A DNA stretch of 64,000 nucleotides from Escherichia coli (lineage in GTDB: Bacteria; Pseudomonadota; Gammaproteobacteria; Enterobacterales; Enterobacteriaceae): the NCBI RefSeq assembly GCF_002854065.1, contig NZ_CP024153.1; one strand, given 5' to 3'. The notes beneath the pieces were generated by a model. It saw only the letters and a program-made list of their open reading frames with translations, was not told the DNA's origin and made no database searches. A program made the translations under genes and the position numbers. Within the stretch, counting starts at the first letter, position 1, and the number at the start of each line of letters is the position of its first letter. Of the stretch, positions 28,278 through 64,000 are shown in pieces.

Positions 28278-28316
28278 CCAAAAAGAACAAGATTCACCGC
28301 AACCCAGGACACTGCC

Positions 28317-28796: not shown

Positions 28797-28810
28797 TCAT
28801 TTTCTGGTGA

Positions 28811-28850: not shown

Positions 28851-28865
28851 GTTATCTGCTGCAGG

Positions 28866-41400: not shown

Positions 41401-41634
41401 GCCAGGCACGGACAACATGGTGGTGGTAAGCGGATAGGTGACCTGGTTTTCTACAATCTGCGGGGCCTGGCCGGGATAGCTGGTTTTGATAATGACCTGC
41501 ACATCTGACAGGTCAGGCAAGGCATCTACCGGCGTGTTAATAATCGTCCATGTTCCCCAGATGCTGAGAAACAGGGCCCCCATCATGACCAGGAAACGGT
41601 TGGCGACAGAGCGCCGGATAATCCATTCAATCAT
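38488..41634 (-). CDS. silA: SilA heavy-metal RND efflux pump (CusA family)
   Basis: 1048 aa [49 protein letters not shown]... Confidence 0.93.
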
Positions 41635-41644
41635 CGTCGTCTCC

Positions 41645-42937: not shown

Positions 42938-43050
42938 ACAATTTTCCGCTAAAAAATCAAAACACCTGGCATATGCGCCTGACGGTTAACTCACACATAT
43001 ACCTATGTGAATGTACAGGCGCACAGGATGTAATCGCTCCGGACAGCCAA

Positions 43051-43404
43051 TCAGGACTGCGTCACGTTAATGCTTTTGAGTAAGGAGATATTGCCCTGCT
43101 GAATAAACGAGAAATCGACATGGTTGCCTGTTTTCAGGGCATTAATAGCATCGTCTGCATTAACAAAAGTAAAGCGCATGGTCATTGCAGGCCAGCCCAC
43201 CGCTGGAATTGCTTCATGCGAAATGGTGATTTTCTTAGTATTCATATCAATGTCTTTAACGACACCGGTGCCCTTGATAACTTGCTGTACCGAAGCATCA
43301 CTGGCAGTATTCATATCGCCATGCTGATGTGTTTCAGCATGAAGACCGGCAGAAAACATGACAGAGAAGGCACCAAATAAAACGGCTTTAAGTGAATTAC
43401 GCAT
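43051..43404 (-). CDS. silF: SilF periplasmic Ag/Cu chaperone (CusF family)
   Basis: 117 aa with signal peptide; operon position between silC and silB. Confidence 0.88.
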   Translation of the reverse strand: MRNSLKAVLFGAFSVMFSAGLHAETHQHGDMNTASDASVQQVIKGTGVVKDIDMNTKKITISHEAIPAVGWPAMTMRFTFVNADDAINALKTGNHVDFSFIQQGNISLLKSINVTQS

Positions 43405-43431
43405 TTTAATTTCCTGATTAATTAAATAAAT

Positions 43432-44817
43432 TTACTCTACCCAACCGCCACCCAGCGCGGTAAACAGATTAATTTCGTTAACCTGCCGGGAATAGGTAAG
43501 ATCGAGAATGGTTTGCTGGGTAGCGAAGAGGGAACGTTCTGCATCCAGCACTTCGATGTAACTGACAGCACCACTTGCATACAATCCTCTGGCACGCTGG
43601 AGAGTTATCTGAAGTGAATCAAGATAACGCTGCTGTGACTCAAGTTGCTGGCTAAGGCTGTCGCGCAGCGCAAGCGTGTCGGAAACATCCTTAAAGGCTG
43701 ACTGAATTTTTTGTTCGTAATTAACCACCGACTGTTGCTGGCGAATTTCAGCCAGCTTCAGATTGGCTTTATTCCTGCCAGCATTAAATATAGGAATTTC
43801 AATTTTAGGGATAAAATTCCACATTCCACTTCCTGACGTAAACAGGCTGGACAGCTCCGTACTGCTTGCGGAAAGACCACTGGTCAGGGTAATGGAGGGG
43901 AAAAAGGCCGCTCGCGCTGCGCCAATATTGGCATCAGCCGCTTTCAGCTGATATTCCGCTTCCATAATATCCGGTCGCTGCAGCAAAATTTGTGAAGACA
44001 TATTTGGTGGTAATTTTACTGGTGCGATCTCCCCGCCTTTCATCCCTTTTTCTGACGGAAGTGCGCGGTACGTTCCCAGCACCAGTTGCAGGGCATTGTT
44101 TGCCTTAGCCAGATCGCCTTCTCGTTTGGCTATTTCGGCGCGGGTACTTTCGATTTGTCCCCTGGCCTGTTCAAGAGCCAGAACGTTCGTACTCCCGGTC
44201 ACGAGCTGTTGCTCAACGAAAGCATAGGACTGTTGATAATTTTTCAGCGTTTCCCGCGCAATACGGAGTTGTTCGTACGCCAGTTGCTGGCTGAAATAAC
44301 TTTGTGAAACGCTGGAGACCAGCAGGATGTGTACGGCCCGACGGGCTTCTTCGCTGGCAAAGTAGTTCTGGCGATCAGCGTCACTCATGTTCTTAAGTTT
44401 GCCGAAAAAATCGAGCTCATAGCTGAGTTTCAGACCCGCGTCGTACTTCTGTGTGGTCGGCTTGTCGCCTTTCAGACCACCGCTGTATGTGATCCCGGAT
44501 GAGGCATTCAGCTGGGGATAACGATCTGCATCCGTGACGTTGAACTGGGCCCGGGCCTCTTCAACCTTCAGGGCAGCCATTCTCAAATCGCGGTTATTAT
44601 TCAGGGCTTCAGTAATCAGCCGTGTAACCTGGGGATCGACAAAAAAGTTACGCCAGCCCGTATCCTGATAACCATTCACTGCTGGCGTCAGGCTGTTTCG
44701 GGACAGTGAAAACTGCTGGGGTACCGGTGCTGCCGGGCGCTGATATTCAGGTGCCAGAGAGACACAACCGGCCAGGATGAATATCGTGCTAATGCTGAGT
44801 AATTTTAATTTGAACAT
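43432..44817 (-). CDS. silC: SilC outer-membrane factor (CusC family); ORF track has a 101-codon spurious upstream extension
   Basis: 461 aa from MFKLKLLSISTIFILAGC lipoprotein signal. Confidence 0.9.
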   Translation of the reverse strand: MFKLKLLSISTIFILAGCVSLAPEYQRPAAPVPQQFSLSRNSLTPAVNGYQDTGWRNFFVDPQVTRLITEALNNNRDLRMAALKVEEARAQFNVTDADRYPQLNASSGITYSGGLKGDKPTTQKYDAGLKLSYELDFFGKLKNMSDADRQNYFASEEARRAVHILLVSSVSQSYFSQQLAYEQLRIARETLKNYQQSYAFVEQQLVTGSTNVLALEQARGQIESTRAEIAKREGDLAKANNALQLVLGTYRALPSEKGMKGGEIAPVKLPPNMSSQILLQRPDIMEAEYQLKAADANIGAARAAFFPSITLTSGLSASSTELSSLFTSGSGMWNFIPKIEIPIFNAGRNKANLKLAEIRQQQSVVNYEQKIQSAFKDVSDTLALRDSLSQQLESQQRYLDSLQITLQRARGLYASGAVSYIEVLDAERSLFATQQTILDLTYSRQVNEINLFTALGGGWVE

Positions 44818-45006
44818 AACGCTTCTCGTCCAGGCAGACCTGGTAAATGGTTCAAATGAAGTCCAGAGTATTACCAGGGTTACTTTACAGAATGCACTCT
44901 GTTTGTCGGGTGACAGGATAATGACAATGTTGTCATTTTTGCTGTAATCCGTTGATAACGATCGTGGGCGCAATAGAATGACCTTAGCAGCCAGCCGGGG
45001 AGCAAG

Positions 45007-45687
45007 ATGAAAATATTGATCGTCGAAGACGAAATTAAAACAGGTGAATATCTCAGCAAAGGGCTTAGAGAGGCAGGGTTCGTAGTGGATCACGCTGATA
45101 ATGGTCTTACCGGATATCATCTCGCCATGACAGCCGAGTATGATTTAGTCATTCTGGATATCATGCTACCTGATGTGAACGGCTGGGATATCATCCGCAT
45201 GCTGCGCACTGCCGGAAAGGGTATGCCGGTCTTACTGCTGACAGCCCTCGGCACGATCGAACATAGGGTCAAAGGACTGGAACTGGGTGCGGACGATTAT
45301 CTGGTTAAACCCTTTGCGTTTGCCGAACTGCTCGCCCGGGTGAGAACCCTTCTGAGGCGGGGAAACACGATGATCACGGAAAGCCAGTTTAAGGTGGCTG
45401 ACCTCTCGATTGATCTCGTATCCAGAAAAGTCAGTCGCGCCGGAAACCGCATTGTGCTCACCAGTAAAGAGTTCAGCCTGCTGGAATTCTTCATTCGCCA
45501 TCAGGGAGAGGTTCTTCCCCGCTCCCTGATTGCCTCTCAGGTCTGGGACATGAATTTTGACAGCGACACTAATGCGATCGATGTCGCAGTAAAGCGACTC
45601 CGCGCTAAAATAGACAACGATTACGGGACAAAGCTGATCCAGACAGTCCGGGGCGTGGGCTACATGCTGGAGGTCCCGGATGCATAG
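45007..45687 (+). CDS. silR: SilR OmpR-family response regulator
   Basis: 226 aa [40 protein letters not shown]..., divergent from silC. Confidence 0.9.
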
Positions 45688-47155
45688 CAAACCTTCCAGA
45701 CGCCCTTTCTCACTCGCTCTGCGGCTGACCTTTTTTATCAGCCTGTCCACGATACTGGCTTTTATCGCCTTCACCTGGTTTATGCTGCATTCTGTTGAAA
45801 ATCATTTTGCCGAGCAGGATGTCAGCGATCTTCAACAAATCAGCACCACACTGAACCGTATACTGCAGTCCCCGGTGGATCCGGATGATAAAAAAATAAG
45901 CAAAATAAAGGAATCAATTGCCAGCTACCGCAACGTTGCCCTTTTGCTCCTCAATCCCAGGGGTGAAGTGCTCTTTAGCTCAGCTCAGGGGGCGGCACTA
46001 CGCCCGGCAGTGAATTCAGCAGATTTTAGCGAGCACAGCCGCGCACGGGATGTCTTTCTCTGGACGGTGGAGGATCCTGCGGGACCGATGGATACCGGGT
46101 CCGAAATGAAGATGGAAACATACAGGATTATCGCCTCCTCTGGTCAGGCGATATTTCAGGGCAAACAGCAGAACTATGTCATGCTGACTGGCCTATCCAT
46201 TAATTTCCATCTCCATTACCTCGATGCGCTGAAAAAGAACCTGATTGCGATTGCCGTCGTGATAAGCCTGTTGATTGTTCTGATCATTCGAATCGCTGTC
46301 CGTCAGGGGCACCTGCCCCTTCGTAATGTCAGCAATGCCATTAAAAACATCACCTCCGAGAATCTTGATGCGCGACTGGAACCGACACGCGTTCCCATTG
46401 AGCTGGAGCAACTGGTTATCTCGTTCAATCATATGATTGGAAAGATTGAGGATGTCTTTACCCGCCAGGCCAATTTCTCTGCCGATATCGCGCATGAGAT
46501 CAGAACGCCCATCACCAATCTGGTGACGCAGACTGAAATCGCACTGAGTCAGGATCGAACACAGAGGGAACTTGAGGATGTCCTCTATTCCAGTCTTGAA
46601 GAGTATAACCGGATGACCAAAATGGTCAGCGATATGCTGTTCCTGGCACAGGCAGATAATAATCAGCTGATACCTGACAGGGTCATGTTTGACCTCAGAG
46701 CGGAAGTCATGAAAGTCTTCGAGTTTTTCGAAGCCTGGGCCGAAGAACGCAATATCACGCTCAAATTTAACGGGATGCCCTGCCTGGTTGAGGGAGATCC
46801 ACAAATGTTCAGAAGGGCGATCAATAATCTGTTATCCAATGCCCTGCGTTATACCCCGGAGGGACAGGCAATCACCGTCTCAATAAGAGAGCAGGAGAGC
46901 TTTTTTGACCTTGTGATTGAAAATCCGGGGAAACCGATCCCTGAAGAACATTTATCAAGGCTGTTTGACCGTTTTTATCGGGTGGATCCATCCAGACAAC
47001 GAAAAGGAGAAGGCAGCGGCATCGGCCTTGCGATTGTGAAGTCAATCGTGGAAGCACATCACGGAAGAGTGCAGGTGGAATCAGACGTACGCTCCACGCG
47101 TTTTATCTTATCCGTGCCCAGACTGGAGAAAATGATCCCGGAAACCCAATGCTGA
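45680..47155 (+). CDS. silS: SilS sensor histidine kinase
   Basis: 491 aa with two TM segments, HAMP and HisKA/HATPase regions; overlaps silR by 8 bp. Confidence 0.9.
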
Positions 47156-47405
47156 AAATAAAGATGTAAATGACAAAGATGTCATTAGCCTGTCATGCAG
47201 CAAACAGAAGCCATTCGATATAATTAGTGCAACTTATCAGGAAGGCTGGATTGCTTCATCAATACCCGGCGTCAGAGTACGCCAGGAAATGAATATCCAG
47301 CCCTCTTCCGGAGAAATAAACGCTGCCGAACTTGTTTCAGTTATGGAACTGAAAACACCGGTTGTACTTCCCCGGACATCACTAATTCAGAAATGGAGAG
47401 TTATC

Positions 47406-47837
47406 ATGAAAAATATCGTATTAGCATCTTTGCTGGGCTTTGGTTTAATTTCATCGGCCTGGGCCACTGAAACCGTGAATATCCATGATCGCGTCAACAA
47501 TGCACAGGCTCCTGCTCACCAGATGCAGTCTGCTGCGGCTCCTGTCGGGATCCAGGGGACTGCTCCTCGTATGACCGGTATGGACCAGCATGAACAGGCC
47601 ATTATTGCTCATGAGACCATGACGAACGGCTCGGCGGATGCGCACCAGAAAATGGTGGAAAGTCATCAGAAGATGATGGGAAATAACACGGTATCCACGA
47701 CCGTCCCGTCAACGTCTTACGCGGCGATGAATGAGCATGAAAGAGCAGCGGTTGCCCATGAATTCATGAATAACGGGCAATCCGGCCCACATCAGGCTAT
47801 GGCCGAAGCGCACCGCCGCATGATCAATGCAGGCTGA
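47406..47837 (+). CDS. silE: SilE periplasmic silver-binding protein (internal start of ORF 47289-47837)
   Basis: 143 aa MKNIVLASLLGFGLISSAWATETVNIH... with repeated His-x-x-Met motifs. Confidence 0.9.
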   Translation: MKNIVLASLLGFGLISSAWATETVNIHDRVNNAQAPAHQMQSAAAPVGIQGTAPRMTGMDQHEQAIIAHETMTNGSADAHQKMVESHQKMMGNNTVSTTVPSTSYAAMNEHERAAVAHEFMNNGQSGPHQAMAEAHRRMINAG

Positions 47838-47929
47838 ATGCGACGGTAGTATCCGTGCTGTTACCTTTTCCCTGATAGATTTTCCTGAAACAACGTTGCT
47901 ACATTTTTGCCCCCCGTCAGGGGGCTTTT

Positions 47930-48331
47930 TTGTCTGACTCAGCTACACTTAACCGGTACCTGTCTGAAAGGAATTATTATATGAAAATCAAAAACACCCT
48001 TTTTGTAATATTAATGTTATCCCTGCCAGCCATTTCTGCTGAACATTCGGAAATGAAAATGTCAGATATGCACTCATCGGCATCATCACAGGAATATATG
48101 GCTGGCATGAAAAATATGCATGAAAAAATGATGGCCGCCGTTAATGAATCCAATCCCGATAAGGCCTTTGCAAAAGGTATGATCGCACACCATGAAGGGG
48201 CAATCGCAATGGCTGAGACCGAGCTCAAATACGGAAAAGATCCCGAAATGAGAAAGCTTGCGCAGGACATCATTAAAGCTCAAAAAGGTGAAATTGAGCA
48301 GATGAATAAATGGCTTGACAGTCATAAATAA
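47930..48331 (+). CDS. DUF305-family periplasmic protein (metal-resistance associated); true start probably internal (about 47981)
   Basis: Signal peptide MKIKNTLFVILMLSLPAISA and ...GMIAHHEGAIAMAE... motif. Confidence 0.65.
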   Translation: MSDSATLNRYLSERNYYMKIKNTLFVILMLSLPAISAEHSEMKMSDMHSSASSQEYMAGMKNMHEKMMAAVNESNPDKAFAKGMIAHHEGAIAMAETELKYGKDPEMRKLAQDIIKAQKGEIEQMNKWLDSHK

Positions 48332-48404
48332 TGAACACTGGAGTGTTGTCTTGCGCACCCTCTTAGGGTACCCCCGGACACGAAAATATATAGCACTTAA
48401 CTAA

Positions 48405-48432
48405 TTAAAAACCCGAATAATTTCGGGTTTTT
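48405..48432 (+). terminator. Rho-independent terminator (AAACCCGAA/TTCGGGTTT stem plus T-run)
   Basis: Read directly. Confidence 0.6.
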
Positions 48433-48718
48433 AATGTAACTTTCTTTTCTGAACGGAAATAATAGTCATACAATTTAATTTTCTTGTAATTACTCCTACT
48501 TTTAATCAGGTACTGGACGATGGATAACGACTCCCGCCTGAGAGGGAAAATCCGTCTGGTTACCTGGCGCTATACTTAACCGATTGATCGACATGCCATG
48601 CTGGTAAAATATTAAAATCCTCCCCCATAAATCTGAACCACATGACAGGATTGATAGTCAGGCAGTATTTCACATTCATTGCTAAAAAAATAAAAATAAG
48701 CATGCATCTTCTCGAAGA

Positions 48719-49633
48719 TTAATTACCTTCCATCTTGTAAAAAAGAATCAAATCCTCTAATAATATCTCGATTCCCGCTTTTTTTAATACATCTTTCCGC
48801 TCGGCATATATTTTCCTCAACATATCTTCAAACCCCTTGCCAAGATGAATTTGTTTATGGCAGTTGCAACATAGTGATATGATATTCTCTTCCACATCCA
48901 GTGAATTCTCAAAATAGTCTTGCTTTGACATCGGGACAATGTGATGAGGTTCTGTGTAATTTAGAGGAGAGTTTCGCCTTCTGAACGTTGGATGGTCGCA
49001 ATTAATTTCACATTTATAATCAGCTTTGTTAAGCGCATTTTTTGAAACAGATTTACTTCTTGGGTATGAGAGTCCATTTTTGACTTCTATTGCAGCTTTC
49101 TTAGGTTTCGCTTTTTCGCTATACTCAAATGTCTGAGTAACGTCAAAGTGATTACTTTCTTCTAGAGCAGTGATCAAATCATTATCTGAGTAAAAATCAA
49201 TGCTTGAGCTTTCGTTCGTACTAAAAAAATCTAGTTCTTTTATTGCCTGAACAAGTTCTTCACGGATAGTCCATAAATTTCGCTTTGGGTTTCCTTTAAT
49301 TTCTCTACTTTTCATGACTGTAATGAATTTTGTCCCGGAAGCAATCTTTCCGACTCCTTTAACCTCGAATCGGCCAAGCTGCTTCTGAACTCTTCCACCC
49401 AACCCATTGATTACACCATTAGCACTCATACTGTGCAGGTCGTACTTCTTGCCGATATCGAAACATGTACAGGAATGGTCTGGCTCAATGAACCATTTTT
49501 TTAACGCTGCAATACTTTTGTCATCAAAAACTTTTTTATCCCTTAATAAAATCTTCCATTCTTCAACGCTAATATCTATATCACAGACGTATTCACCATC
49601 AATTACTTCACATATTTTTTCAATCATGTCCAT
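48719..49633 (-). CDS. HNH (His-Me finger) endonuclease-domain protein with uncharacterised ~200-aa N-terminal domain
   Basis: C-terminal YKCEINCDHP...EPHHIVPMS...SLCCNCHKQIHLG HNH/zinc-finger motifs; low-GC gene flanked by ~400-600 bp AT-rich non-coding DNA. Confidence 0.75.
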   Translation of the reverse strand: MDMIEKICEVIDGEYVCDIDISVEEWKILLRDKKVFDDKSIAALKKWFIEPDHSCTCFDIGKKYDLHSMSANGVINGLGGRVQKQLGRFEVKGVGKIASGTKFITVMKSREIKGNPKRNLWTIREELVQAIKELDFFSTNESSSIDFYSDNDLITALEESNHFDVTQTFEYSEKAKPKKAAIEVKNGLSYPRSKSVSKNALNKADYKCEINCDHPTFRRRNSPLNYTEPHHIVPMSKQDYFENSLDVEENIISLCCNCHKQIHLGKGFEDMLRKIYAERKDVLKKAGIEILLEDLILFYKMEGN

Positions 49634-50243
49634 AACTCTCTTGTAACACAGGCTTTGTAATAATGTAAAATCCGTTACACGGCGTTGTATGTAATGTCAT
49701 TGTCTCTTGGACTCCTACAGTCCAAAACAACTTTGTGTTTTGTTGTCCAAAAACTTTTTGTTGCAGTGAGTTCTCACTGAGATAAATCTCGCCTTGAGCG
49801 TATCACATCAGCAGACTTCCTCTCAACCTTATGGACTTAACCCGGTCATTCTTCACGACAAAGAAAGTACGGCATTTTACATGACGAAGAGACGGTCTCA
49901 GTTTCACATGACCGGATAACGTTTTTAATGTACTTCATTATTACGGCACGGGTGTTCAAAGAGTATTTTTAAATATTAATCATTTTGTTTAACGGGTGGA
50001 TACCTACAAATTTTAACATTTACTAATCAAGATAGCAGTTATACGTACTGTCCCGGCAAAAATCCTGAGGTTTACAGATTCCCTCACCGTAACAGACCCG
50101 GTCATTCCCCCTGGTCCTCCGGAGAGTCTAGTACGAGTGATAAACGTGAATTCCTGTACCTGAAGTTCAGCCGCTGGCAGATAAGTCGTGAACTATAATT
50201 ACATTCAGTCAGATCCAAACACCTTTTCATCTGCATATATACT

Positions 50244-51239
50244 TTGTACATACCAGGAGATTACATGCAGGCACCCGGTATACCGGAGAATGAAGAACAG
50301 AGGCTGAAGTCCCTGTATATTACCGGCCTTCTTGATACCCGTGACGATGAGCGTTTTGAACGCCTGACGCGGCTGGCCCGTAAAGCCTTTCAGGTCCCGG
50401 TGGCCCTGATAAGCCTGCTGGATCGCGAGCGCCAGTGGCTCCTCGCCTGCCAGGGCGTCGGCGTGCGCGAAACCCCGCGTAACATCTCGTTCTGCGGGCA
50501 TGCCATTCTGCAGGAGGGGCCCTTCATTGTTCACGACGCAGCTGCTGATGAGCGGTTCCGTGACAATCCCCTGGTCACCGGTGAGCCCCACATCCGGTTC
50601 TACGCCGGCCAGCCGGTGAGCCTGCCCGACGGCACGGTGGCCGGCACGCTGTGCCTGATCCACACCGTTCCCCGCGCCTTCACGGATGATGACATTGCGT
50701 CCCTCCGGGATCTGGCCTGTATCGTGGAAGACGAATTCGAGGCCATCAGCATGGCCATGACGGACAGCCTGACGGGCATTCCCAACCGGCGCGGGTTTTA
50801 CCGCGCCGGCGAAAAACTCTTCCGCGCGATGAACCGGCAGGATGCGTCGTTCAGCCTCATCTATTTCGATCTGGACAGGTTCAAACCGGTGAACGATCTC
50901 TGGGGGCACGCAGAGGGAGACGAGGTGCTGAAGGTTTTTGCCGGCTTTTTACATCAGCACCTCGAACCGGGCGAAATAGCAGGCCGCCTCGGCGGGGATG
51001 AGTTTGCCGCCCTGATCCGGCGAAACGGGAACACGAGTTCTTTTCTGCACGCGCTGAGTGCCAGTTTGGATCATTACAATGACACCTCGGGCAAGCCCTA
51101 CAACATCAATTATTCCTTTGGCGAACTGATCAATAACGCAGACCAGTACGCGACGCTGGCGGAAATGATCGGCAAATGTGACGAAGTGATGTACCTGAAG
51201 AAAAAACGAAAGACCCTGTCGCGGAAAGCAGAACCGTGA
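50244..51239 (+). CDS. GAF-domain diguanylate cyclase (GGDEF)
   Basis: N-terminal GAF-like region; C-terminal ...RLGGDEFAAL... GGDEF active-site motif. Confidence 0.85.
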   Translation: MYIPGDYMQAPGIPENEEQRLKSLYITGLLDTRDDERFERLTRLARKAFQVPVALISLLDRERQWLLACQGVGVRETPRNISFCGHAILQEGPFIVHDAAADERFRDNPLVTGEPHIRFYAGQPVSLPDGTVAGTLCLIHTVPRAFTDDDIASLRDLACIVEDEFEAISMAMTDSLTGIPNRRGFYRAGEKLFRAMNRQDASFSLIYFDLDRFKPVNDLWGHAEGDEVLKVFAGFLHQHLEPGEIAGRLGGDEFAALIRRNGNTSSFLHALSASLDHYNDTSGKPYNINYSFGELINNADQYATLAEMIGKCDEVMYLKKKRKTLSRKAEP

Positions 51240-51808
51240 CGTTCTCCTTCCCGGCTGATCCCCTGCCCCGGGGTTCAGCCGGACGGCAGGAACAATATAT
51301 TTAACCTCATGGCGCATAAAGTCATTTATATTTGCTCATGGCGCAATAATCCTCTCATCGCAACAATTACTCGTTTTTTGTGTCCATGCTGCAAAAATTC
51401 CTCTCTTCCTCTCCCGAGATCCGAAAAAAGGTAGTCCCGGATCTCTGCGAACCCCACCGGCGCGCAGCGGCCCGACAACACAAGATGTAGCGGTGTTTCC
51501 AGCTGATAGTGACGCCATATGTTGTGTCCCTCTCCTGCCCCGTGACCCGGCGCGCAGCATCAGAAAACAGTGCTTCGCTTACTTCCTGACCGTGATAAAC
51601 TTCCGGAAACTTCGCTAAATGTGAAAAGTCGGATCTGCCGGAAACGGTCATTCGGTAATTTAACAGCGTTGCTATATGGCTGCTTATTATCAGTCAAAAA
51701 AATAATTACAGTATGGGAAATTCATCCAGGTGACAGATGCAGGATTGTGCTCAGCTAATTATACCTTGCGTCATAATTACACTTAGTGACTATTTATTAG
51801 GAGGCTAA

Positions 51809-52105
51809 ATGCACGCATCAATGGTTCATGTCTGGGAGTATCTGACACGTTGTGGTCATAAATTTCTATGGCTAAAAATTAACCCTCTACCTCCAGGATA
51901 TACCGGTTCGGTATACAGAGCGCAGTTTGAAATTTACAGCGCGTCGGGCCGTATTCTGGTCACGCTTGATGTGCACAGACAGCAATGGGTGTGTTCAGCA
52001 AACAATCCTCGCCGTGAACCTGCTGATAAAAACGGGGTCATGCTTGATAGCGGTATACCTCTGGATAGAAACCTCGCATCACATTATGCAAAACAGGGGT
52101 ACTGA
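51809..52105 (+). CDS. Hypothetical small protein (98 aa)
   Basis: Strong RBS (AGGAGG) 7 bp upstream of ATG; no recognisable motif. Confidence 0.5.
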   Translation: MHASMVHVWEYLTRCGHKFLWLKINPLPPGYTGSVYRAQFEIYSASGRILVTLDVHRQQWVCSANNPRREPADKNGVMLDSGIPLDRNLASHYAKQGY

Positions 52106-52169
52106 ATGAATCTAACCCTGGTACAAGCACTGGCAGATGCCTGGCGGGATTTCTCAATAAGGATCAAAC

Positions 52170-52841
52170 ATGGCTGACTGGTTTATTGCGACTGAGGGCG
52201 TGAAGGTGGTGAAGGACAGTGCCAGCCTGTGGCCGCAGATCGTTACGGCTATTTCCTCTGCCGGCGCAGCCCTGGTGGGTGTTGCTCTCACACACCGTTT
52301 TACCCGCAGGCGTGAAGAAGCTACTGCTGCACGTAAACGTTACGATGAATTGTACTTTATATCTACCGAGCTAGTTTTTCTGCTGGAGCGTTTTGCACAA
52401 CGCTGTGTTTATTCTGCTAATGAATCAGGGGAATATGACCAAGATGGACGTATTAGGATTGAGTATTCTTTACCTGAAATCAATTTCGAGTCCATTACTG
52501 GGGACTGGCGTTCTCTGCCACCAGGATTGATGTACAGACTTGCTGAATTGCCAGTCATCTGCAGGGAAGCCGCGAGTTCTATAAGTGCGGCGTTCAATGA
52601 AGATACTCCCTTCGATGGATCGTATGGAATTTTCGAACTTAACAGGCAGTCTGCAAGACTCGGATTAAAAGCAATACGTTTATCCCGTTGGCTACGTCAG
52701 CTATGCGATATGCCTGGGGACAGGTTGTCTGACGACCGTTGGTCGGCATGGAGTGTTTTGTATCGGAAGCGCTGGGAGCATATTAGGAATAATAACAATG
52801 TTCACCGCCGATATAAACGGTTGCCTGATGTTACTGAGTAG
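52170..52841 (+). CDS. Hypothetical membrane-anchored protein (223 aa, one N-terminal TM helix)
   Basis: RBS (AGGA) upstream; hydrophobic segment LWPQIVTAISSAGAALVGVAL; ends 19 bp before the recombinase gene. Confidence 0.55.
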   Translation: MADWFIATEGVKVVKDSASLWPQIVTAISSAGAALVGVALTHRFTRRREEATAARKRYDELYFISTELVFLLERFAQRCVYSANESGEYDQDGRIRIEYSLPEINFESITGDWRSLPPGLMYRLAELPVICREAASSISAAFNEDTPFDGSYGIFELNRQSARLGLKAIRLSRWLRQLCDMPGDRLSDDRWSAWSVLYRKRWEHIRNNNNVHRRYKRLPDVTE

Positions 52842-52860
52842 ATGGCTCAGGAGTTAGACT

Positions 52861-53649
52861 ATGAATAATAATTTCCCGGCAGGTATCAGGGATAACACAC
52901 GGAACACCTCGATGAATCTGCCAGTAGCCATCGATTACCCTGCCGCTCTCGCCCTGCGTCAGATGGCGCTCGTGCAGGATGAACTCCCGAAATACCTGCT
53001 GGCGCCGGAAGTCAGCGCCCTGCTCCATTACGTGCCGGATCTTCACCGCAAGATGCTGCTGGCGACGCTGTGGAACACCGGCGCGCGCATTAATGAAGCG
53101 CTCGCGCTGACCCGGGGGGATTTTTCGCTGGCGCCGCCGTATCCTTTCGTGCAGCTGGCCACGCTCAAGCAGCGCACCGAGAAAGCGGCCAGGACGGCAG
53201 GTCGTGCCCCCGCAGGCAGTCAGGTCCATCGTCTGGTTCCCCTTTCCGATCACCACTACGTCAGTCAGCTGCAGATGATGGTGGCCACCCTGAAAATTCC
53301 CCTCGAAAGACGAAACAAACGCACCGGCAGAATGGAGAAGGCGCGTATCTGGGAGATCACAGACCGAACCGTCCGCACCTGGCTTAGCGAAGCGGTGGAA
53401 GCCGCAGCGGCCGACGGGGTGACGTTCTCAGTACCGGTGACCCCCCATACGTTCCGTCACTCCTACGCGATGCACATGCTGTATGCCGGCATACCACTGA
53501 AGGTTTTGCAGAGCCTGATGGGCCACAAATCGATTAGCTCGACGGAAGTCTATACGAAGGTGTTTGCACTTGATGTTGCTGCGCGGCATCGAGTTCAGTT
53601 TCAGATGCCCGAAGCGGATGCGGTAGCCATGCTGAAAGGGAATATTTAA
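52861..53649 (+). CDS. Tyrosine site-specific recombinase (phage-integrase/XerD-like, possibly ResD-type resolvase)
   Basis: C-terminal ...HTFRHSYAMHML...GHKSISSTEVYTKV... catalytic R-H-R-Y signature. Confidence 0.85.
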   Translation: MNNNFPAGIRDNTRNTSMNLPVAIDYPAALALRQMALVQDELPKYLLAPEVSALLHYVPDLHRKMLLATLWNTGARINEALALTRGDFSLAPPYPFVQLATLKQRTEKAARTAGRAPAGSQVHRLVPLSDHHYVSQLQMMVATLKIPLERRNKRTGRMEKARIWEITDRTVRTWLSEAVEAAAADGVTFSVPVTPHTFRHSYAMHMLYAGIPLKVLQSLMGHKSISSTEVYTKVFALDVAARHRVQFQMPEADAVAMLKGNI

Positions 53650-53706
53650 GTACTTAGGAGAATGATGCTGGCGAACGTCATGCTCGCCGGTGAGGTCTGT
53701 CAGAAG

Positions 53707-53898
53707 TTATCTGGACCAGCTGACGGGAATATCTGCTCTGTATTCCTCATACTGCTCATAGATCGCATGCTGAAGCATCGTAATACGTTCTGACAACCTG
53801 TTGGCGTCCGACATATGCCGCCATTCCCCCTCAATAGTGGTTTTCTGTCCATCCGGGAGATTGAGCGTGATCAATACCTTTGTATCACGAATAATCAC
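53707..53898 (-). CDS. Hypothetical small protein (63 aa)
   Basis: ORF only; no motif recognised. Confidence 0.3.
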   Translation of the reverse strand: MIIRDTKVLITLNLPDGQKTTIEGEWRHMSDANRLSERITMLQHAIYEQYEEYRADIPVSWSR

Positions 53899-53942
53899 CC
53901 CGTCAGTGAAAGAATTAAGACCACTGAATCGCCACGGATAAT

Positions 53943-54755
53943 CTAGACACTTCCGAGCCGTTGATAATACTGGTTTTCATATTCTGTCGGTGACATCTGT
54001 TCGCTAGAACCATGCCGACGCTTACTGTTATAAAACATTTCGATGTAATCAAAAATATCACTGCGGGCTTCTTCCCGCGTTCCGTAGATCTTTTTCTTTA
54101 TCCGTTCGCGTTTCAACAACTGGAAAAAGCTTTCTGCAACCGCATTATCATGGCAGTTACCGCGACGGCTCATGCTGCCCTCCAGGCCGTGTGATTTCAG
54201 GAACGACTGCCATTCATGGCTTGTGTACTGACTGCCCTGATCCGAATGAACCAGCACCTGTTTTTGGGGATTACGCCGCCATACAGCCATCAGCAGTGCG
54301 TTCAGGACAATGTCTTTTGTCATCCGGGACTGCATGGACCAGCCGATAATTTTGTGTGAGAACAGATCAACAACCACGGCAAGATACAGCCAGCCTTCGT
54401 GGGTCCTTATGTAGGTTATGTCCGTTACCCAACGCTCATCCGGAGCATCCGGATTGAACTGTCGCTGAAGCCTGTTGGGCGACACGATACTGGCCTCGCC
54501 TTTACGAGCCCGCGGGCTCCGGTATCCGACCTGAGCCTTTATCCCGATACGTTTCATCAGTCGCCAGACTCTGTTCACTCCGCACTGTTGCCCGCTGTCC
54601 CGCAGATCTAAATGGATTTTGCGATAACCATAGACGCATCCCGATTCCAGCCAGAACTGTTTAATCTGTCCTGTCAGTCTCAGGTCTGCCTGATGGCGTT
54701 GTGAATGCGGCTGCTGAAGCCAGGCGTAAAAACCACTGGGATGAACATCCAGCAC
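53943..54755 (-). pseudogene. IS3-family transposase OrfB (DDE integrase domain); upstream orfA region interrupted by IS30
   Basis: 270 aa with ...WVTDITYIRT...LAVVVDLFSHKIIGWSM...HSDQGSQYTS... IS3-family DDE motifs. Confidence 0.8.
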
Positions 54756-54841
54756 CCGACAGAGCAGGCGAACAGGCCAGCAACAGGTGTTTTCACGGAT
54801 AAAGGCGTACCTCAGTCGGACAGCTTTGCGAAGTACGCCGC

Positions 54842-56062
54842 TGTAGATTCAATCTGTCAATGCAACACCCCTTTCAATTATCTCTTTCGGTGTTTTGAAC
54901 TTCAGTGTCTTTCTCGGTCTGTTGTTTAGCTGAGCAGCAACCAGATCTAGTTCATGTTGAGTATATTGGGCAAGACATGTCTTTTTAGGAAAGTACTGCC
55001 GAATTAGCCCATTTGTGTTCTCATTTGTTCCCCGCTGCCAAGGACTCTGAGGATCGCAGAAGTAAACTTTAACGCCGGTGCTGACAGTAAATTCTAGATG
55101 TCTGGCCAGTTCCATTCCTCTGTCCCATGTCAGTGATTTTCTGAGTTCTGACGGTAAACTCAGGAATTTGTCGGTAAGAGCCTGATTTACTGAGACAGAA
55201 TCTTTGCCCCTGAGTCTAAGGATGATCGTATAACGTGATTTTCGGTCTACAAGTGTGGCTATATGAGAGTTTTTTGTACCTGAGACTAAATCGCCCTCCC
55301 AATGCCCCAGAGAGCGTCTGTTATCGATATTTCGGGAACGTTCGTGAATTGGTGTTCCGTTCACTATGTTAATCGTACCTCTTTCGCCTTTGCGGGTATG
55401 ACGCCTGCCATGGCGAAGGCTATGCGACCGTCGCAGATGCTGTATATTCAGGTGGTGTAGCGCTTCACGGCTACGAAAGTACAGCGTTTTATAAATTGTC
55501 TCAGGTGATATTCGCAGCGTTTTTTGACGTGGTTTTGTTCGCCTTAACCATCCTGATATTTGCTCTGGAGACCATTTCATCTCCAGCTTTTCCAGAACAA
55601 GCTTTCGCAATGGTAAATTTTGATCCAGTAAGCACGGTTTTGGCCTTTTCGCCATTCTGTTGGCTCGGTTATTAGCATCAACAGCTTTGTAATAGCGTCT
55701 GCCCCGATTACGCTGAACTTCACGTGAGATCGTCGAAGGACTGCGATTCAGCGCAGTAGCTATCGCACGAATGCTCATTTTGGCTGACAAACCAGCTCGT
55801 ATCTCCTCGCGCTCAGACAGTGTCAGGTGAGCTACAGCCCGCTTACGCTCATGGGGTTTTATGCCGCCAGTATCCCTTAACATAGTGAAGATCGTTCCGG
55901 GTTTTGAACCCAGGATATTCGCTATTTCACTGAAGCCTGTTCCGTTCTTCCATAGTTCAAAAACAGAGGCTTTTTCCTCTGCTGTAAATGTTCATCTCAT
56001 TCAAAAAACCTCCGCAACCCCATGTTTTCACATAACTGTTGCGTTGACCAATTGAATCTACA
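54842..56062 (-). mobile_element. IS30 (1221 bp)
   Basis: Terminal repeats TGTAGATTCAAT...; no matching 2-bp target duplication (GC left, GG right). Confidence 0.9.
54849..56000 (-). pseudogene. IS30 transposase with TGA at codon 3 (ATG AGA TGA); 344-aa ORF resumes at internal Met
   Basis: Recalled IS30 Tnp begins MRRTFTAEEK...; window reads M R stop T F T A E E K in the same frame. Confidence 0.7.
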
Positions 56063-57150
56063 GGGCGGATTTCCACACAGCACCGGCGCCCGGCAAGGTG
56101 GGCCGATTTCCACACAGCACCGGTGCGCGGCAAGGTGGGCCGATTTCCACACAGCACCGGCGCCCGGCAAGGTGGGCTGATTCCCACACGGCACCGGCGC
56201 CCGGCAAGGTGGGCGGATTTCCACACAGCACCGGCGCGCGGCAAGGTGGGCTGATTCCCACACGGCACCGGCGCCCGGTAAGGTGGGCGGATTTCCACAC
56301 GGCACCGGCGCCCGGTAAGGTGGGCGGATTTCCACACAGCACCGGCGCCCGGCAAGGTGGGCTGATTCCCACACGGCACCGGCGTCCGGTAAGGTGGGCG
56401 GATTTCCACACAGCACCGGCGCGCGGCAAGGTGGGCCGATTTCCACACGGCACCGGCGCCCGGCAAGGTGGGCGGATTTCCACACGGCACCGGCGCCCGG
56501 TAAGGTGGGCTGATTCCCACACGGCACCGGCGCCCGGCAAGGTGGGCTGATTCCCACACGGCACCGGCGCCCGGTAAGGTGGGCGGATTTCCACACAGCA
56601 CCGGCGCGCGGCAAGGTGGGCTGATTCCCACACGGCACCGGCGTCCGGTAAGGTGGGCGGATTTCCACACAGCACCGGCGCGCGGCAAGGTGGGCTGATT
56701 CCCACACGGCACCGGCGCCCGGTAAGGTGGGCGGATTTCCACACGGCACCGGCGCCCGGCAAGGTGGGCTGATTCCCACACGGCACCGGCGCCCGGCAAG
56801 GTGGGCTGATTCCCACACGGCACCGGCGCCCGGTAAGGTGGGCTGATTCCCACACAGCACCGGCGCCCGGCAAGGTGGGCTGATTCCCACACGGCACCGG
56901 CGCCCGGCAAAGTGGGCGGATTTCCACACAGCACCGGCGCCCGGTAAGGTGGGCGGATTTCCACACAGCACCGGCGCCCGGCAAGGTGGGCTGATTCCCA
57001 CACGGCACCGGCGCCCGGTAAGGTGGGCGGATTTCCACACAGCACCGGCGCGCGGCAAGGTGGGCCGATTTCCACACAGCACCGGCGCCCGGCAAGGTGG
57101 GCGGATTTCCACACAGCACCGGCGCGCGGCAAGGTGGGCCGATTCCCATA
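56063..57150. repeat. Tandem array of ~29 copies of a 37-bp GC-rich repeat (consensus GGGCNGATTYCCACACRGCACCGGYGCSCGGYAAGGT)
   Basis: Period and copy variants read directly; begins exactly at the IS30 end. Confidence 0.9.
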
Positions 57151-57774
57151 TCGACATGTATGTAGCTTGTGTTATCCGTGGATTGTGCAGCTCAGCTGGT
57201 CGTATGGCGGAGTGTCCCCCGTAACCGGCCGCGTGCGGCCGCTAACGCGCAGTACGGCCCCCCCCGTGGGGGACGTGCGGCAGCTGCGTGGCGGTGAGCG
57301 GGATTAGGGCTTTGCAGCTACCGTGTTAAGTTCCCTGGTGTCGCTGAAAGAGTTGATGAACATCCCCCTAAGCGTCAGCAGCAAGCTGCCGCCGCTAAGT
57401 CCCCGGAAATCACGCCCTTTACGTCGTAAACGCCGTAAAGCCCGCTCACCGGGGTTAAAAGGGATTACTTTGACTTCTTCATTGCTGTTCGCGAGTTAAG
57501 GCTAATCAGGGCAGGGGGTAGGGTGGCAGAATTTATAGCCCGGCAACGGGCTACGCCGGGCTTTCGGCGCCATTTTACAACACAGACACATGTAACCTCA
57601 TCTGGCGCCTCCATGCCGCTGACGCGGCATTCAGAAGCTTCCCAATGCTGTAGGTTTTAACATCTGCTTTATGTCAGAAGCGGATGGTTCAGAAGCCAGC
57701 AGTTTCCAATAACAGATATAGTATCGAACCGGATACTCATGATTTTTGGGTGACGCTGCCAACTTACTGATTTA

Positions 57775-58080
57775 GTGTATGATGGTGTTTTTGAGGTGCT
57801 CCAGTGGCTTCTGTTTCTATCAGCTGTCCCTCCTGTTCAGCTACTGACCGGGGTGGTGCGTAACGGCAAAAGCACTGCCGGACATCAGCGCTATCTCTGC
57901 TCTCACTGCCGTAAAACATGGCAACTGCAGTTCACTTACACCGCTTCTCAACCCGGTACGCACCAGAAAATCATTGATATGGCCATGAATGGCGTTGGAT
58001 GCCGGGCAACTGCCCGCATTATGGGCGTTAGCCTCAACACGATTTTACGTCACTTAAAAAACTCAGGCCGCAGTCGGTAA
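57775..58080 (+). pseudogene. insA: IS1 insA with frameshift near the 5' end (canonical GTG-start frame stops after 19 codons)
   Basis: Window has CTGACCGGGG where canonical IS1 is recalled as CTGACGGGG; ORF track protein has a non-canonical 27-aa N-terminus lacking the first CxxC of the zinc finger. Confidence 0.7.
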
Positions 58081-58124
58081 CCTCGCGCATACAGCCGGGC
58101 AGTGACGTCATCGTCTGCGCGGAA

Positions 58125-58502
58125 ATGGACGAACAGTGGGGATACGTCGGGGCTAAATCGCGCCAGCGCTGGCTGTTTTACGCGTATGACAGGCTCCGGA
58201 AGACGGTTGATGCGCACGTATTCGGTGAACGCACTATGGCGACGCTGGGGCGTCTTATGAGCCTGCTGTCACCCTTTGACGTGGTGATATGGATGACGGA
58301 TGGCTGGCCGCTATATGAATCCCGCCTGAAGGGAAAGCTGCACGTAATCAGCAAGCGATATACGCAGCGAATTGAGCGGCATAACCTGAATCTGAGGCAG
58401 CACCTGGCACGGCTGGGACGGAAGTCGCTGTCGTTCTCAAAATCGGTGGAGCTGCATGACAAAGTCATCGGGCATTATCTGAACATAAAACACTATCAAT
58501 AA
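58125..58502 (+). CDS. insB: IS1 InsB reading frame (normally expressed as InsAB' by frameshifting)
   Basis: 125 aa [22 protein letters not shown]... Confidence 0.85.
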
Positions 58503-59366
<864 letters not shown>

Positions 59367-59536
59367 CCACTTCAAACATGCTTCGTTCAGATCCCAACAG
59401 AGTTTTCACCATCGCCTGTAACAGCCGTCCTGCTGCGTGATTACTCCGCTCAACGGGTTGCTGGCGACAAGTCAATACCTGTTCGTGACAGGTATTGATT
59501 GAACCGTTGTCCCTAACTAATAATGTGCCGACGATG

Positions 59537-59750
59537 CAGGTGGGACCGTGGTCCCAGGGAGATAACCTGACCGGCGATACAGGTGGGACCGTGGTCCCAG
59601 GGAGATAACCTGACCGGCGATACAGGTGGGACCGTGGTCCCAGGGAGATAACCTGACCGGCGATACAGGTGGGACCGTGGTCCCAGGGAGATAACCTGAG
59701 CGGCGATACAGATGGGACCGTGGTCCCAGAGAGAATATTCAGGCCAGTTA
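59537..59750. repeat. sopC: sopC-like centromere: about 5 tandem 43-bp repeats each containing the inverted repeat TGGGACCGTGGTCCCA
   Basis: Read directly; immediately downstream of sopB as in F plasmid. Confidence 0.85.
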
Positions 59751-59817
59751 TGTTTTCTGGCCTGTGAGAAAGGAAATGAAGTAAAGGGAGATCACCGTAG
59801 ACTAAAGCGTGTCCGCA

Positions 59818-60789
59818 TCAGACTCCTGGTTTCTCAAGCTCCTTAAGAATGGCTTCTATTTTCTCTATACACTCCGCAGGAATGCGGGACCTATCCAGGT
59901 TAAGCACCATTTTATCGCCCTTATACAATGCTGTTGCCCCTGGAGCAAACTGATGACGTGAGCTCAGATTAACTCTTGATGCGGGGGATTGTTTCAGTAC
60001 GGATGTTAAAAGACTAATGACCTCTTCAGCTTCAAAGATTAGTCCCGCTTTCTTCTGATCGTGGAGAGTCTCAGCCTGCTGCTTCAGTAATTCTTCTTTA
60101 TCTGCAAAAGCCTTCTGAAGGGCTTCACCTGACCGGGCAGACAGTTCTCCAGGATGTGCAAACAGGGCAACAACGGATTTAGGCAATTTGGCCGTATTGA
60201 TACAGCGGGTAATGATCTTACGAGAGATGTTTTCCGCATCGGCAAGCGCAGAAATATTTCCTGCAAACTCATTCTGCAGCCGGCTTGTATAACGCAGGCC
60301 ACGTTCATAAGCACTCGTCGGCCGATAATCGTTACCCAGTCGGGACAATGCAGCCATCTGCTCATCGTCCAGTTCACCAACCAGAACGCGATAATCACTT
60401 TCCGTCAGGATTGCGGCTTTACGGCGACGGCTGCCGTCGGCAATTTCTATGACATCAGAAACCCGGCGGCCGAAAGCTGGAGTCTGCTGACCGGTCAGTA
60501 AAAATGAAGGAATGAGATCATCCAGAGCATCTTCGGTAAGTAGTTCCTGATCGCGCTCATTGCCTGACCATACGCGTGAAGCGCTCTCAACAGAGTCTCC
60601 CCGGAGCACCTCAAGGGTAAATTTTACTTCCCGTCCACATACCGGAAGAGAGATTGCATTACCGCGGGCCATAGCACCCACGCGCGCAATTAATGAATCC
60701 ACCATCGGCGCGGCCGGCGCCGGTGATGAAGTATCTTCAGTCGATTGAGTATGTGTGGTATGTCTTGGAATGACAGGAGCACGCTTCAT
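59818..60789 (-). CDS. sopB: SopB/ParB centromere-binding partition protein
   Basis: 323-aa ORF immediately downstream of sopA and upstream of sopC repeats. Confidence 0.88.
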
Positions 60790-61964
60790 TATCTAATCTC
60801 CCAGCGTGGTTTAATCAGACGATCAAAAATCTCATTGCAAACAGGCTCCCAGATAGAGAGGGCATTACGCCAGGCACCGGTTGAAGAACGTTGATCAATA
60901 GCCTGTTCAAAAACGGTTCTCATACGGATCTGACCTTTACCGACTTCATCCGTTTCGCGCACAACATTTTTAAGGACCATGCTTCCCCAGGCATCCCGAA
61001 TTTGTTCTTCCATCCACGGGGACTGTGAGCCATTATTATTACTGTATTTGGTAAGCAGAATACGGACATCTGGCTCGAAGCCTTTAAGATCCACGTTCTT
61101 AAGCAGGTCACGAAGCATATCGAAAAACTGCAGTGCGGAGGTGTAGTCGAACAGCTCTGCCGGAGTAGGGACAATCAGAACATCAGCAGCGCATACAACA
61201 TTTATCGTACCGATACCAAGGTTAGGTGCACTGTCGATAACTATCACGTCATAATCATGAGCGACAGTTTCAATGGCCAGACGGAGCATCAGGTGCGGGT
61301 CAGCAGGTAATTTGCCTTCGTCAAATTTCCCCATCAGCTCGGTTTCAATGCGGTGCAGTGCCAGACAGGACGGGATGATATCAAGGCCAGGCCAGCAGGT
61401 GGGCTTTATAGCGTAGCTGGCGTCATCCTTTTCCCCAAGATAAAAGGGTAGGAGAGTGTCCTCAGCATGAATATGAAGATCGGGCACCCATCCGTGATAC
61501 ATAGAAGCAGTTCCCTGTGGGTCATTGCCTTCAACAAGCAGAACACGGAGTCCTTTCAGAGCAAGATCCTGAGCCAGGTGAACGGATACTGAGGTTTTGT
61601 AAACACCACCTTTGTGAGCTGCAACGCCAATCACCGGCGGAAACGCATCTTCAGCACGGCGCAGTCGTGTACCAAATACATCCCGCATGTGATTGATTTG
61701 TTCGATGGTATAACCAACGCGTTGCTCAACTCTCCCACGGGTTTCCATATCAGGGTGCGGCAGCCGGCCAGCTTTCTCGGCATCCCTGATAGCCTGAGAT
61801 GACACGCCAACTAAATCTGCCGCTTCACCAATCCTCCAGCGCCGGGTTATTTTCCGGGCTTCCGGACTGTCATCATTAAACTGTGCAATGGCGATTGCTT
61901 TCGTCATTTCATGACCAGCACTTATGCACTGGTTGAGTGTATCCATGAGTCCCATACTGAACAT
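60789..61964 (-). CDS. sopA: SopA/ParA type Ia partition ATPase (F-plasmid-like)
   Basis: Near-identical to recalled F SopA: ...[55 protein letters not shown]...; Walker A KGGVYKTS. Confidence 0.9.
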
Positions 61965-62149
61965 CCTTTAACCATCACTTTGCATTATTTTATTAAATCT
62001 TGGAATTTATTGCAAAGCAACAATAAAATCGCAAAGCACACGAAAAAGTGCAAAGTGAACCACATTGGCTAATGAAAGAACGCAGGGGATTACAAAAGAG
62101 TACATACTGCAGTCAATATTAATCACTGCCGCTCGCCGCAGTAAGCGAT

Positions 62150-62680
62150 CTCACAAAGTGAGAAAGCGGCGAGGAAGCGGAAAATCACAGAACTCACAGA
62201 TTGCACGTACGTCGGGTTGCTAAAGATGACTCGGGATCAGCCAGTTATAATGAAATTGACTGCGGTATGTAATATATTGACTATGGTATGATGCTTACCG
62301 CATCTGTAGGAAAGACGACTCAGCATACCGCAGTCAATGTTTCATTGTTGTACCTGTAGATCTCAATCTTCCAGAGCGTATTCAGGAAAATCAGGCCAGG
62401 GTTCTGGATATCTGGTGTGGCGCTTCCGGCCTTGTATCTGGGTTATTCATGGTCTCGATCCAATAATTGATCCCAAGGAGATCATAGTGAGATCCAAAAG
62501 AGATCCCCGGATCGCTCCAGCATGCGCTGTAACTGGCTTTAACGTCTGTCTGGATCGACTGCGGAATGTAAAATGTTGACTGTTATATGCATAATCTAAT
62601 ACTGTGATATGCAACGGTATTTACTGAGGTATGTATATCTGTTGACTGCGATACGTATTACTACATCCTTTTGTGGATAA
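62150..62680. repeat. Iteron cluster upstream of repB (multiple TTGACTG(C/T)GGTATG-like repeats in both orientations)
   Basis: ATTGACTGCGGTATGT, ATTGACTATGGTATGA, CATACCGCAGTCAAT, TGTTGACTGTTATATG, TGTTGACTGCGATACG read directly. Confidence 0.7.
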
Positions 62681-62683
62681 CCG

Positions 62684-63706
62684 TTGAGGATCAAGATGAC
62701 GAGCGAAAATAATAGCTTACTTCTGAACCTTCAGGAAGTTGATAAGACAACCGGTGAAGTTGTTAAGCTGGATGTCAACAGCACCAGTACCGTGCAGCCA
62801 GTAGCGCTCATGAGACTCGGTCTCTTCGTCCCAACTCTGAAATCAACAGGGAAGAGCAAGGCGAACCGGAAAAACGTTACAGACGCGACTGAGGAGCTTG
62901 TACAGCTGTCCATTGCCAAAAGCGAAGGATACACTGACGTTAAGATCACCGGTTCGCGTCTTGATATGGACACGGATTTTAAAGTCTGGCTGGGGATAAT
63001 TCGCTCCATGTCGGAGTATGGGGTAAAAAGTGACACCCTGGAACTGTCGTTCGTCGAATTCGTTAAGATGTGCGGATTTGACTCCCGTCGTTCAAACAAA
63101 AAAATGCGCGATCGCATCAGTAATTCCCTGTTTAAACTCGCCTCGGTTACGCTGAAGTTCCAGAGCGAGACCAAAGGATGGACCACCCATCTGGTGCAGT
63201 CAGCCTATTATGACATCAACGAGGATATCGTTGAGATCAAGGCTGAACCTAAGCTGTTTGAGCTTTACCACATGGACAGAAGGGTACTTCTGCGGCTGAA
63301 AGCCATTGACGCCCTGCAGCGCAAGGAATCAGCCCAGGCGCTTTATACCTACATCGAAAGTCTTCCCCAGAATCCTGCACCTATTTCCATGAAACGGATG
63401 CGTGACCGGCTGAATCTCACCTCAAATGTCTATACGCAGAACCACACGGTGCGTAAGGCGATGGAGCAGCTGCGGGATATTGGTTATCTGGATTACACTG
63501 AGTTTAAACGTGGCCGAGCCACCTATTTCAGCGTGCATTATCGCAACCCCAAACTCATCAGTGGTCCTGTGAAGGTTCCGCGCAAAGAGGAAGAAGAGAA
63601 GGCGCCAGAGCAAAATTATGACGAAGTCATTAAGGCGCTGAAGGCTGCTGGCATCGATCCCCTTAAACTGGCCGAAGCTCTCTCAGCGATGAAGCCAGAA
63701 AATTGA
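62684..63706 (+). CDS. repB: Rep_3-family replication initiator (RepB/RepA of IncFIB/IncR-like replicon); start may be internal (MTSENN...)
   Basis: 340 aa; ...[16 protein letters not shown]... and ...[25 protein letters not shown]... resemble recalled IncR/IncFIB RepB; flanked by iterons. Confidence 0.8.
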
Positions 63707-63830
63707 CTGTCATATGTGATTTCAGGCCGTGATACGCAGATATTGACTACGGTATGCGGGTTTAACGGCGATATTCCCAGGTCTGTGCACTGCTCCACAC
63801 GTGTTAACATGCCACAGTCAATTTTTCAGT
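63707..63830. repeat. Iteron cluster downstream of repB
   Basis: AATTGACTGTCATATG, ATATTGACTACGGTATGC, CCACAGTCAAT read directly. Confidence 0.65.
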
Positions 63831-64000
63831 AAAGCTCTATACCCCTTACGAAAATCTCAATCGGATGGGCTTTGTTGAATAAATCGAACTTTTGCTGAGT
63901 TGAAGGATCAGATCACGTATCTTCCCGACAACGCAGACCGTTCCGTGGCAAAGCAAAAGTTCAAAATCACCAACTGGCCCACCTACAATAAAGCCCCCAT

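Follow-up and report, generated by a model that had tools for sequence, protein, structure and literature searches.

The tandem array of 37-bp repeats at 56063-57148 (plus strand) of the window, the 64,000-nt stretch of Escherichia coli DNA analysed here, is very probably the "iteron I" region of an IncN1 (R46/pCU1-type) replicon, a row of RepA sites that persists here as an orphan relic. We document its identity, anatomy, lineage and orphan status below. Judging from its surroundings, the array is stranded on an F-type multiresistance plasmid and appears unable to drive replication here, since the 64-kb window holds neither an intact IncN repA nor IncN origin iterons, nor any IncN cores beyond those of the array and of a second, small remnant. 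The sole repA of the window has lost its first 13 codons together with all upstream sequence, and thus does not make up a functional IncN1 replicon; an intact IncN repA may lie elsewhere on the plasmid, of which the window covers 64 kb. The first-pass annotation had proposed an iteron array serving a RepE-like initiator, with a role in copy control, but had called its function unresolved. The initiator is indeed of the Rep_3 family, like the product of the truncated gene at 19.9 kb, and the copy-control idea is in line with the literature, which assigns such regions to replication and copy-number control; the function need not be left unassigned, as the array corresponds to the IncN1 "iteron I" region already described. 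The feature is therefore an ordinary one that already has a name, and little about it is new.

Anatomy of the array

Tandem Repeats Finder reports 56063-57148 as a repeat of period 37 with 29.4 copies, 91% matches, 0% indels and a score of 1717. Cut into units, the array consists of 29 full 37-bp units plus the 13-nt beginning of a 30th, and it includes 13 distinct unit variants, which differ at only eight columns of the unit (5, 10, 17, 25, 27, 28, 32, and 35). An 18-bp core, AAGGTGGGCNGATTYCCA, is matched 29 times in the array at a spacing of exactly 37 bp (28 times), and twice more on the minus strand at 19818-19872; shuffled window sequence gives no match to it. At the left edge of the array one more core is cut by IS30, and has lost its AAGGT half. 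The G+C content of the array is 70%, as compared to 51% for the window. These results bear out the original description of about 29 tandem units set directly against IS30, and reproduce its alternating variants on a degenerate consensus, with the variation now confined to the eight columns. They also agree with its judgement that the array is not a CRISPR: the units are contiguous, head to tail, with no unique spacers between repeats.

Relation to the IncN1 replicon

Comparison with characterised iterons, which the first-pass annotation had put forward as a check, gives a match to the IncN1 array of R46 (record positions 32510-32749), at 91-94% identity over 240-bp alignments. For finer comparison we coded each distinct 37-bp unit as one letter and compared arrays as strings; units A and J of the window array are identical to units of R46. 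The order in R46 is repA, a 47-bp spacer, 6.5 copies of the 37-bp unit, a conserved repeat, and the resolvase gene resP, so that an IncN array is expected 47 bp downstream of repA and upstream of CUP6-resP. The right side of the window array matches this expectation. It is followed at 57149-57320 (plus strand) by a divergent variant of the conserved CUP6-like repeat, the usual right-hand neighbour of IncN iteron arrays, and the adjoining flank (57149-57261) runs on into the post-array sequence of R46 at 81-88% identity; this flank also resembles R46 at three other CUP positions, which lie between the ccg and ard genes. On the left side, IS30 stands in place of the repA spacer, which the sister plasmids pSCE516-4 and pS13D retain.

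The published descriptions fit this arrangement. An order "ΔrepA-iteron I-CUP6-resP" has been given, together with a tabulated "No. of 37-bp repeats in iteron I (IncN)" of 28-31 in N1-F33:A-:B- plasmids (PMC6052338), and 3-7 copies of the 37-bp repeat have been reported in IncN1 plasmids (PMC5027574). The iteron regions are said to serve replication and copy-number control (PMC7843705, citing Krishnan & Iyer 1990 and Papp & Iyer 1995).

The window array thus has in common with the "iteron I" of R46, pKM101, and pCU1 (37-bp repeats downstream of repA) its period, its CUP6-type right flank and its 18-bp core, and its copy number falls within the range of IncN-derived segments, for which published counts run from 3 to 31 and an intact plasmid has 35. 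Unlike theirs, it is detached from repA and has had its left end removed by IS30. Its GGGCTGATTCCC and GCGCGCGG unit types and its divergent CUP6 (81-88%) further set it apart from the R46 type, as a side lineage on F-type plasmids. A close parallel is the "N region" of IncR plasmids (PMC9412624), a repA remnant followed by 24.3 copies of 37 bp and lying between IS1X3 and IS903B, which likewise has no working repA, is bounded by insertion sequences and resides on a non-IncN carrier; its right flank is of the same kind as that in the window (96% identity over 439 bp). The IncR copies differ in keeping ∼355 bp of the 3′ end of repA, in their unit variants W, X, and Y, and in the flanking insertion sequences.

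History of the array copy

The array begins at the base after the terminal inverted repeat of an IS30 copy (54843-56062, minus strand; terminal repeats TGTAGATTCAAT... at 54843 and ...ATTGAATCTACA ending at 56062) whose right end abuts it. This IS30 is 99% identical to those of pS13D and p13C1065T-2. IS30 matches that extend 11 nt into the array were set aside as chance alignment extension and not as IS30 sequence. The right end of the IncN-derived segment is marked by an IS1 at 57748-58518.

The unit string of the window array is ABCDEFGAHEIGDFEHEFJDFKLMAFECE. That of pSCE516-4 is NDH followed by exactly the window string, and that of pS13D is the pSCE516-4 string less 12 internal units. In both of these plasmids the spacer between repA and the array is kept, and an IS66-family element interrupts it immediately after the repA stop codon; the window array therefore comes from a lineage that had already lost its repA, to this IS66-family element, before the present junction formed. 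The window is collinear with pS13D on both sides of that junction, 39500-56066 with pS13D 1-16567 (to the IS30 end) and 56391-64000 with pS13D 22347-29956 (from inside the array onward). Because both blocks are collinear around the gap, the window differs from pS13D by an IS30-adjacent deletion of ∼5.8 kb, whose content relative to pS13D is a hypothetical gene, IS1, rclA, the IS66-family element, the spacer, and units N, D, and H. The exact IS30-array junction has no record in PLSDB or among complete E. coli genomes. An IS30-mediated inversion, hinted at by p13C1065T-2 (where an IS3-family fragment is inverted on the other side of IS30), was considered and dropped: pS13D, which is more closely related, is collinear with the window as far as the end of IS30, and an adjacent deletion suffices.

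The IS30 copy beside the array may itself be inactive. Codon 3 of its transposase gene (window 55994, minus strand) reads TGA where p13C1065T-2 IS30 has CGA, and its transposase ORF starts at an internal ATG and encodes 344 aa as compared to 383, whereas the gene annotated in pS13D has the full-length 383 codons.

The truncated repA module

A second IncN remnant lies 36 kb away on the minus strand. As the first-pass annotation had noted, it holds about 1.6 inverted units near a truncated rep gene; these occupy 19810-19867, as a unit O (19831-19867) and 21 nt of a further one (19810-19830), and lie 47 bp past the point where the rep ORF stops. That ORF, ΔrepA (19920-20648, minus strand, 242 aa), matches residues 14-239 of R46 RepA at 100% identity over its residues 17-242, while the first 13 RepA residues are replaced by 16 residues read from the end of an IS26 (20601-21421, minus strand) that truncates the 5′ end of repA. 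The ORF starts at a TTG inside IS26, 3 nt after the IS26 transposase stop codon and on the same strand. It retains the two winged-helix domains of Rep_3 initiators (Pfam Rep3_N, E = 9e-28; Rep3_C, E = 4e-9), and is without the native promoter and the 22-bp origin iterons. We see a small possibility that the fusion still yields a RepA-like DNA-binding protein, with 226 of 239 residues kept just downstream of the IS26 transposase gene and in the same orientation. The same fusion ORF (RefSeq WP_152921961.1, "replication initiation protein") recurs in IncHI2, IncF, and IncX plasmids, and leads MOB-suite to type its carrier plasmids as "IncN".

On its far side the remnant borders a Tn21-TIR-like sequence occupied by an IS4321/IS5075-type element, and then gshB. 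The element spans window 18400-19809 (transposase ORF 18528-19532, plus strand) and sits at a Tn21-family-like terminal repeat, GGGGTCCGCTTGGAAAACGG. Exactly the same arrangement of IS26, ΔrepA, iterons, IS4321, and gshB is found in PCN061p6. It corresponds to what has been called "an additional IncN replication region", consisting of ΔrepA, a few 37-bp repeats and gshB, sometimes with an IS5075 insertion, and known from several plasmid families; an IS5075-type insertion at the same place was noted there too (PMC6052338).

Core, origin iterons, and proposed function

In each 37-bp unit the 18-bp core (AAGGTGGG-N2-ATTYCCA) is joined to 19 bp of G+C-rich spacer, CACRGCACCGGCGCSCGGY. On the upstream side of its repA, beside an AT-rich stretch, R46 has five 22-bp iterons that carry the same core in the opposite orientation; in reverse complement they read AAGGTGGGC-NN-ATTCCCA, or, as a degenerate form, (A/T)AGGTGGG-NNN-(A/T)TTCCCA. 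In the array, this shared core straddles the point where one 37-bp unit meets the next. The centre of the core is position 5 of the unit, which is variable in the R46 22-bp iterons too, and the other often-variable unit positions fall in the spacer or at the core edges.

The 22-bp spacing amounts to 2.1 helical turns, which places successive sites on the same face of the helix, next to an AT-rich neighbour; the 37-bp spacing amounts to 3.5 turns, which places successive sites on alternate faces, within DNA of 70% G+C. The 22-bp cluster upstream of repA thus has what looks like the anatomy of the iteron origin proper. The 37-bp array would suit a binding sink rather than a melting site, and we take it for a putative control cluster because alternate-face spacing and G+C-rich DNA suit the one and not the other. 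We infer this role from the anatomy, from secondary literature and from a deletion analysis of pCU1 that reportedly agrees with it; we hold it as inference because pCU1 is said, going by the title of Zoueva et al. 2003, to use three origins (oriB, oriS, and oriV).

In the mechanism that we propose, the array downstream of repA would, like other non-origin iteron clusters, soak up RepA (titration) and pair with the origin iterons (handcuffing), and the two effects together would hold copy number down and cause incompatibility. The window array would then bind RepA supplied in trans and so disturb a co-resident or incoming IncN1 plasmid. By analogy, its residual activity is likely to be RepA titration, expressed as IncN incompatibility in trans. 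Both RepA binding and the copy-control role are taken from the literature and are predicted for this copy.

Other iteron plasmids have non-origin control clusters as well, P1 incA and F incC among them. The array resembles these in being a second initiator-binding cluster that lies across the rep gene from the origin cluster, and in its tie to copy control and incompatibility. It is unlike them in that sequence and initiator are unrelated at this level, and in that it is built of a long, 37-bp repeat with a G+C-rich spacer in ∼30 copies, as compared to the typical 5-9.

Copy number and prevalence

To read array lengths in other plasmids, we searched with R46 repA and the array flanks, minus the array itself, and took the length from the span of the match. 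Arrays found in this way range from ∼7 to ∼35 units in different plasmids. The R46 array (26515-26749) and that of pGMI17-001_1 (2017-3324) have 6.5 and 35 units, respectively, between repA and resP flanks that are 100% identical. pGMI17-001_1 is an intact, conjugative, single-replicon IncN plasmid whose RepA is identical to that of R46. About 30 copies is therefore a normal size for an IncN array. An alternative that we rejected is that long arrays arise only after loss of repA, through relaxed copy control; the intact pGMI17-001_1 has 35 units. The 6.5 units of the R46 record may reflect real (hyper)variation or assembly collapse. As the array collapses or varies in assemblies, unit order can serve as a fine-scale lineage marker.

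The array is present in 549 of 5,426 complete E. coli genomes, and 502 of these 549 match at least 80% of a 549-bp array stretch. An intact IncN1 origin/repA 5′ region is present in 182 of the 5,426; orphan arrays are thus the majority in complete E. coli genomes. Long arrays persist, and change in whole units only. A reading that we consider unlikely is that orphan arrays are kept on non-IncN plasmids (F-type, IncR, and others) because their ∼20-30 sites would titrate IncN1 RepA and so exclude IncN1 plasmids. If this were true, a carrier plasmid would displace IncN1 plasmids or exclude them from the same cell, and the arrays would not be neutral debris. Since orphan arrays outnumber intact IncN1 replicons, incompatibility directed against IncN plasmids becomes testable.

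Published comparisons of resistance-plasmid maps show such IncN array remnants as a matter of routine. ΔrepA and iteron remnants also cause typing tools to label F, HI2, and R plasmids as "IncN" multi-replicons; the IncN replicon in the window cannot function.

Alternative explanations

The first-pass annotation had suggested that the array and the ΔrepA module with its 1.6 units were once a single replicon in this plasmid, split by an IS-mediated inversion. Such an event would account for two IncN1-derived pieces lying 36 kb apart in opposite orientations, and the window is full of copies of IS26, IS30, IS1, and IS3-family elements that could be invoked for it. We nonetheless regard it as extremely unlikely, and the order of units speaks against it. 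The first unit after repA is O in R46, in the NB5306 plasmid and in pGMI17-001_1, and it is O also in the remnant (19831-19867), whereas the lineage of the window array starts with spacer-N-D-H-A-B-C. The array of pSCE516-4 and pS13D had been cut off from repA by the IS66-family element, a plain deletion next to IS30, as seen against pS13D, accounts for the left edge of the window array, and what borders the remnant on its far side is not IS30 but a TIR-like sequence with an IS4321-type insertion, and gshB. The IS26-ΔrepA-iterons-gshB segment is, moreover, known from several plasmid families, where it has been reported as an additional IncN region in its own right. Because the first units differ (O as compared to N) and ΔrepA belongs to a separately circulating module, the two IncN pieces in the window appear to be independent acquisitions, not halves of one replicon. 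It is also very unlikely, if marginally less so, that the array forms part of a working auxiliary replicon in which the IS26-ΔrepA protein fires an origin in or beside the array, such as one of those of pCU1. Residues 14-239 of RepA are preserved at 100% identity with both winged-helix domains, the ORF follows the IS26 transposase stop codon by 3 nt on the same strand, and pCU1 has been reported, in the titles of references, to have several origins, one of them RepA-dependent. Set against this, the window has neither the native promoter nor the AT-rich region nor any of the five 22-bp iterons, the fusion ORF has a TTG inside IS26 as its start, the same ΔrepA occurs in IncHI2, IncF, and IncX plasmids that have their own replicons, and repA is entirely absent from many carriers of the array (549 E. 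coli genomes with the array as compared to 182 with an intact IncN origin region).

Two further readings of the array were weighed. That it is a centromere-like array, or some other array of binding sites for a protein unrelated to RepA, for instance an extension of sopC, is scarcely plausible: the sopAB genes and the 43-bp sopC repeats are 2.4 kb away, but the array shows no sequence relationship to the 43-bp sopC unit, its native place is in IncN plasmids devoid of sop genes, where repA and CUP6-resP flank it, and its core is common to the origin iterons of that same replicon. That the repeats encode a repetitive protein, which the first-pass annotation had named as the finding that would overturn its view, is next to impossible. 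ORFs of 363-391 aa do run through the array, but all three minus-strand frames are free of stop codons together, the consensus unit has none in any of its six frames, and a 37-bp period cannot be divided by 3; a Pfam search of the array gives no match even at E ≤ 10, and none of the RefSeq records listed has a gene annotated there. With several frames open at once in DNA of 70% G+C, the long ORFs are a by-product of the repeat, as had been supposed. We thus retain the reading of the array as IncN1 iteron I.

Other replicons in the window

The window carries sopAB, a shortened sopC, and an FIA-type rep gene; maintenance of this part of the plasmid probably depends on the replicon of the latter. 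A 340-aa rep ORF lies at 62684-63706 with 19-bp repeats upstream of it (62012-62055); in sister plasmids it is annotated as a RepB-family initiator, IncFIA. The sopC of F has 12 copies of a 43-bp repeat, and that of the window (59528-59734) only 4.8. An IS3-family transposase ORF (58527-59366) adjoins the shortened sopC, and the same arrangement is found in pS13D and pSCE516-4.

A second orphan iteron set of the window consists of five 22-bp repeats, TGCGTACCCATCCACCTTTCAG, at 21493-21612, of IncX1-origin type. They differ from the 37-bp unit in sequence, as had been stated at the outset, and have no more than AAGGTGG in common with the IncN core. On p3-H9, a small plasmid, the same 22-bp repeat sequence adjoins two rep genes and stbDE; a repX-pir-stbD/E segment has been described as IncX1-related (PMC6052338). 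A toxin-antitoxin pair of the stbD/stbE type lies at 22475-22997 in the same IncX1-type segment of the window, where the rep genes are replaced by IS26. We considered whether this 22-bp set could supply origin iterons for the IncN array and rejected this; the repeats belong to a third replicon, of IncX1 type.

At 11549-11628, the terminal 40 bp of IS26 are duplicated in a perfect tandem (2 × 40 bp), at the end of a complete IS26 (10769-11588) and beside class 1 integron sequence.
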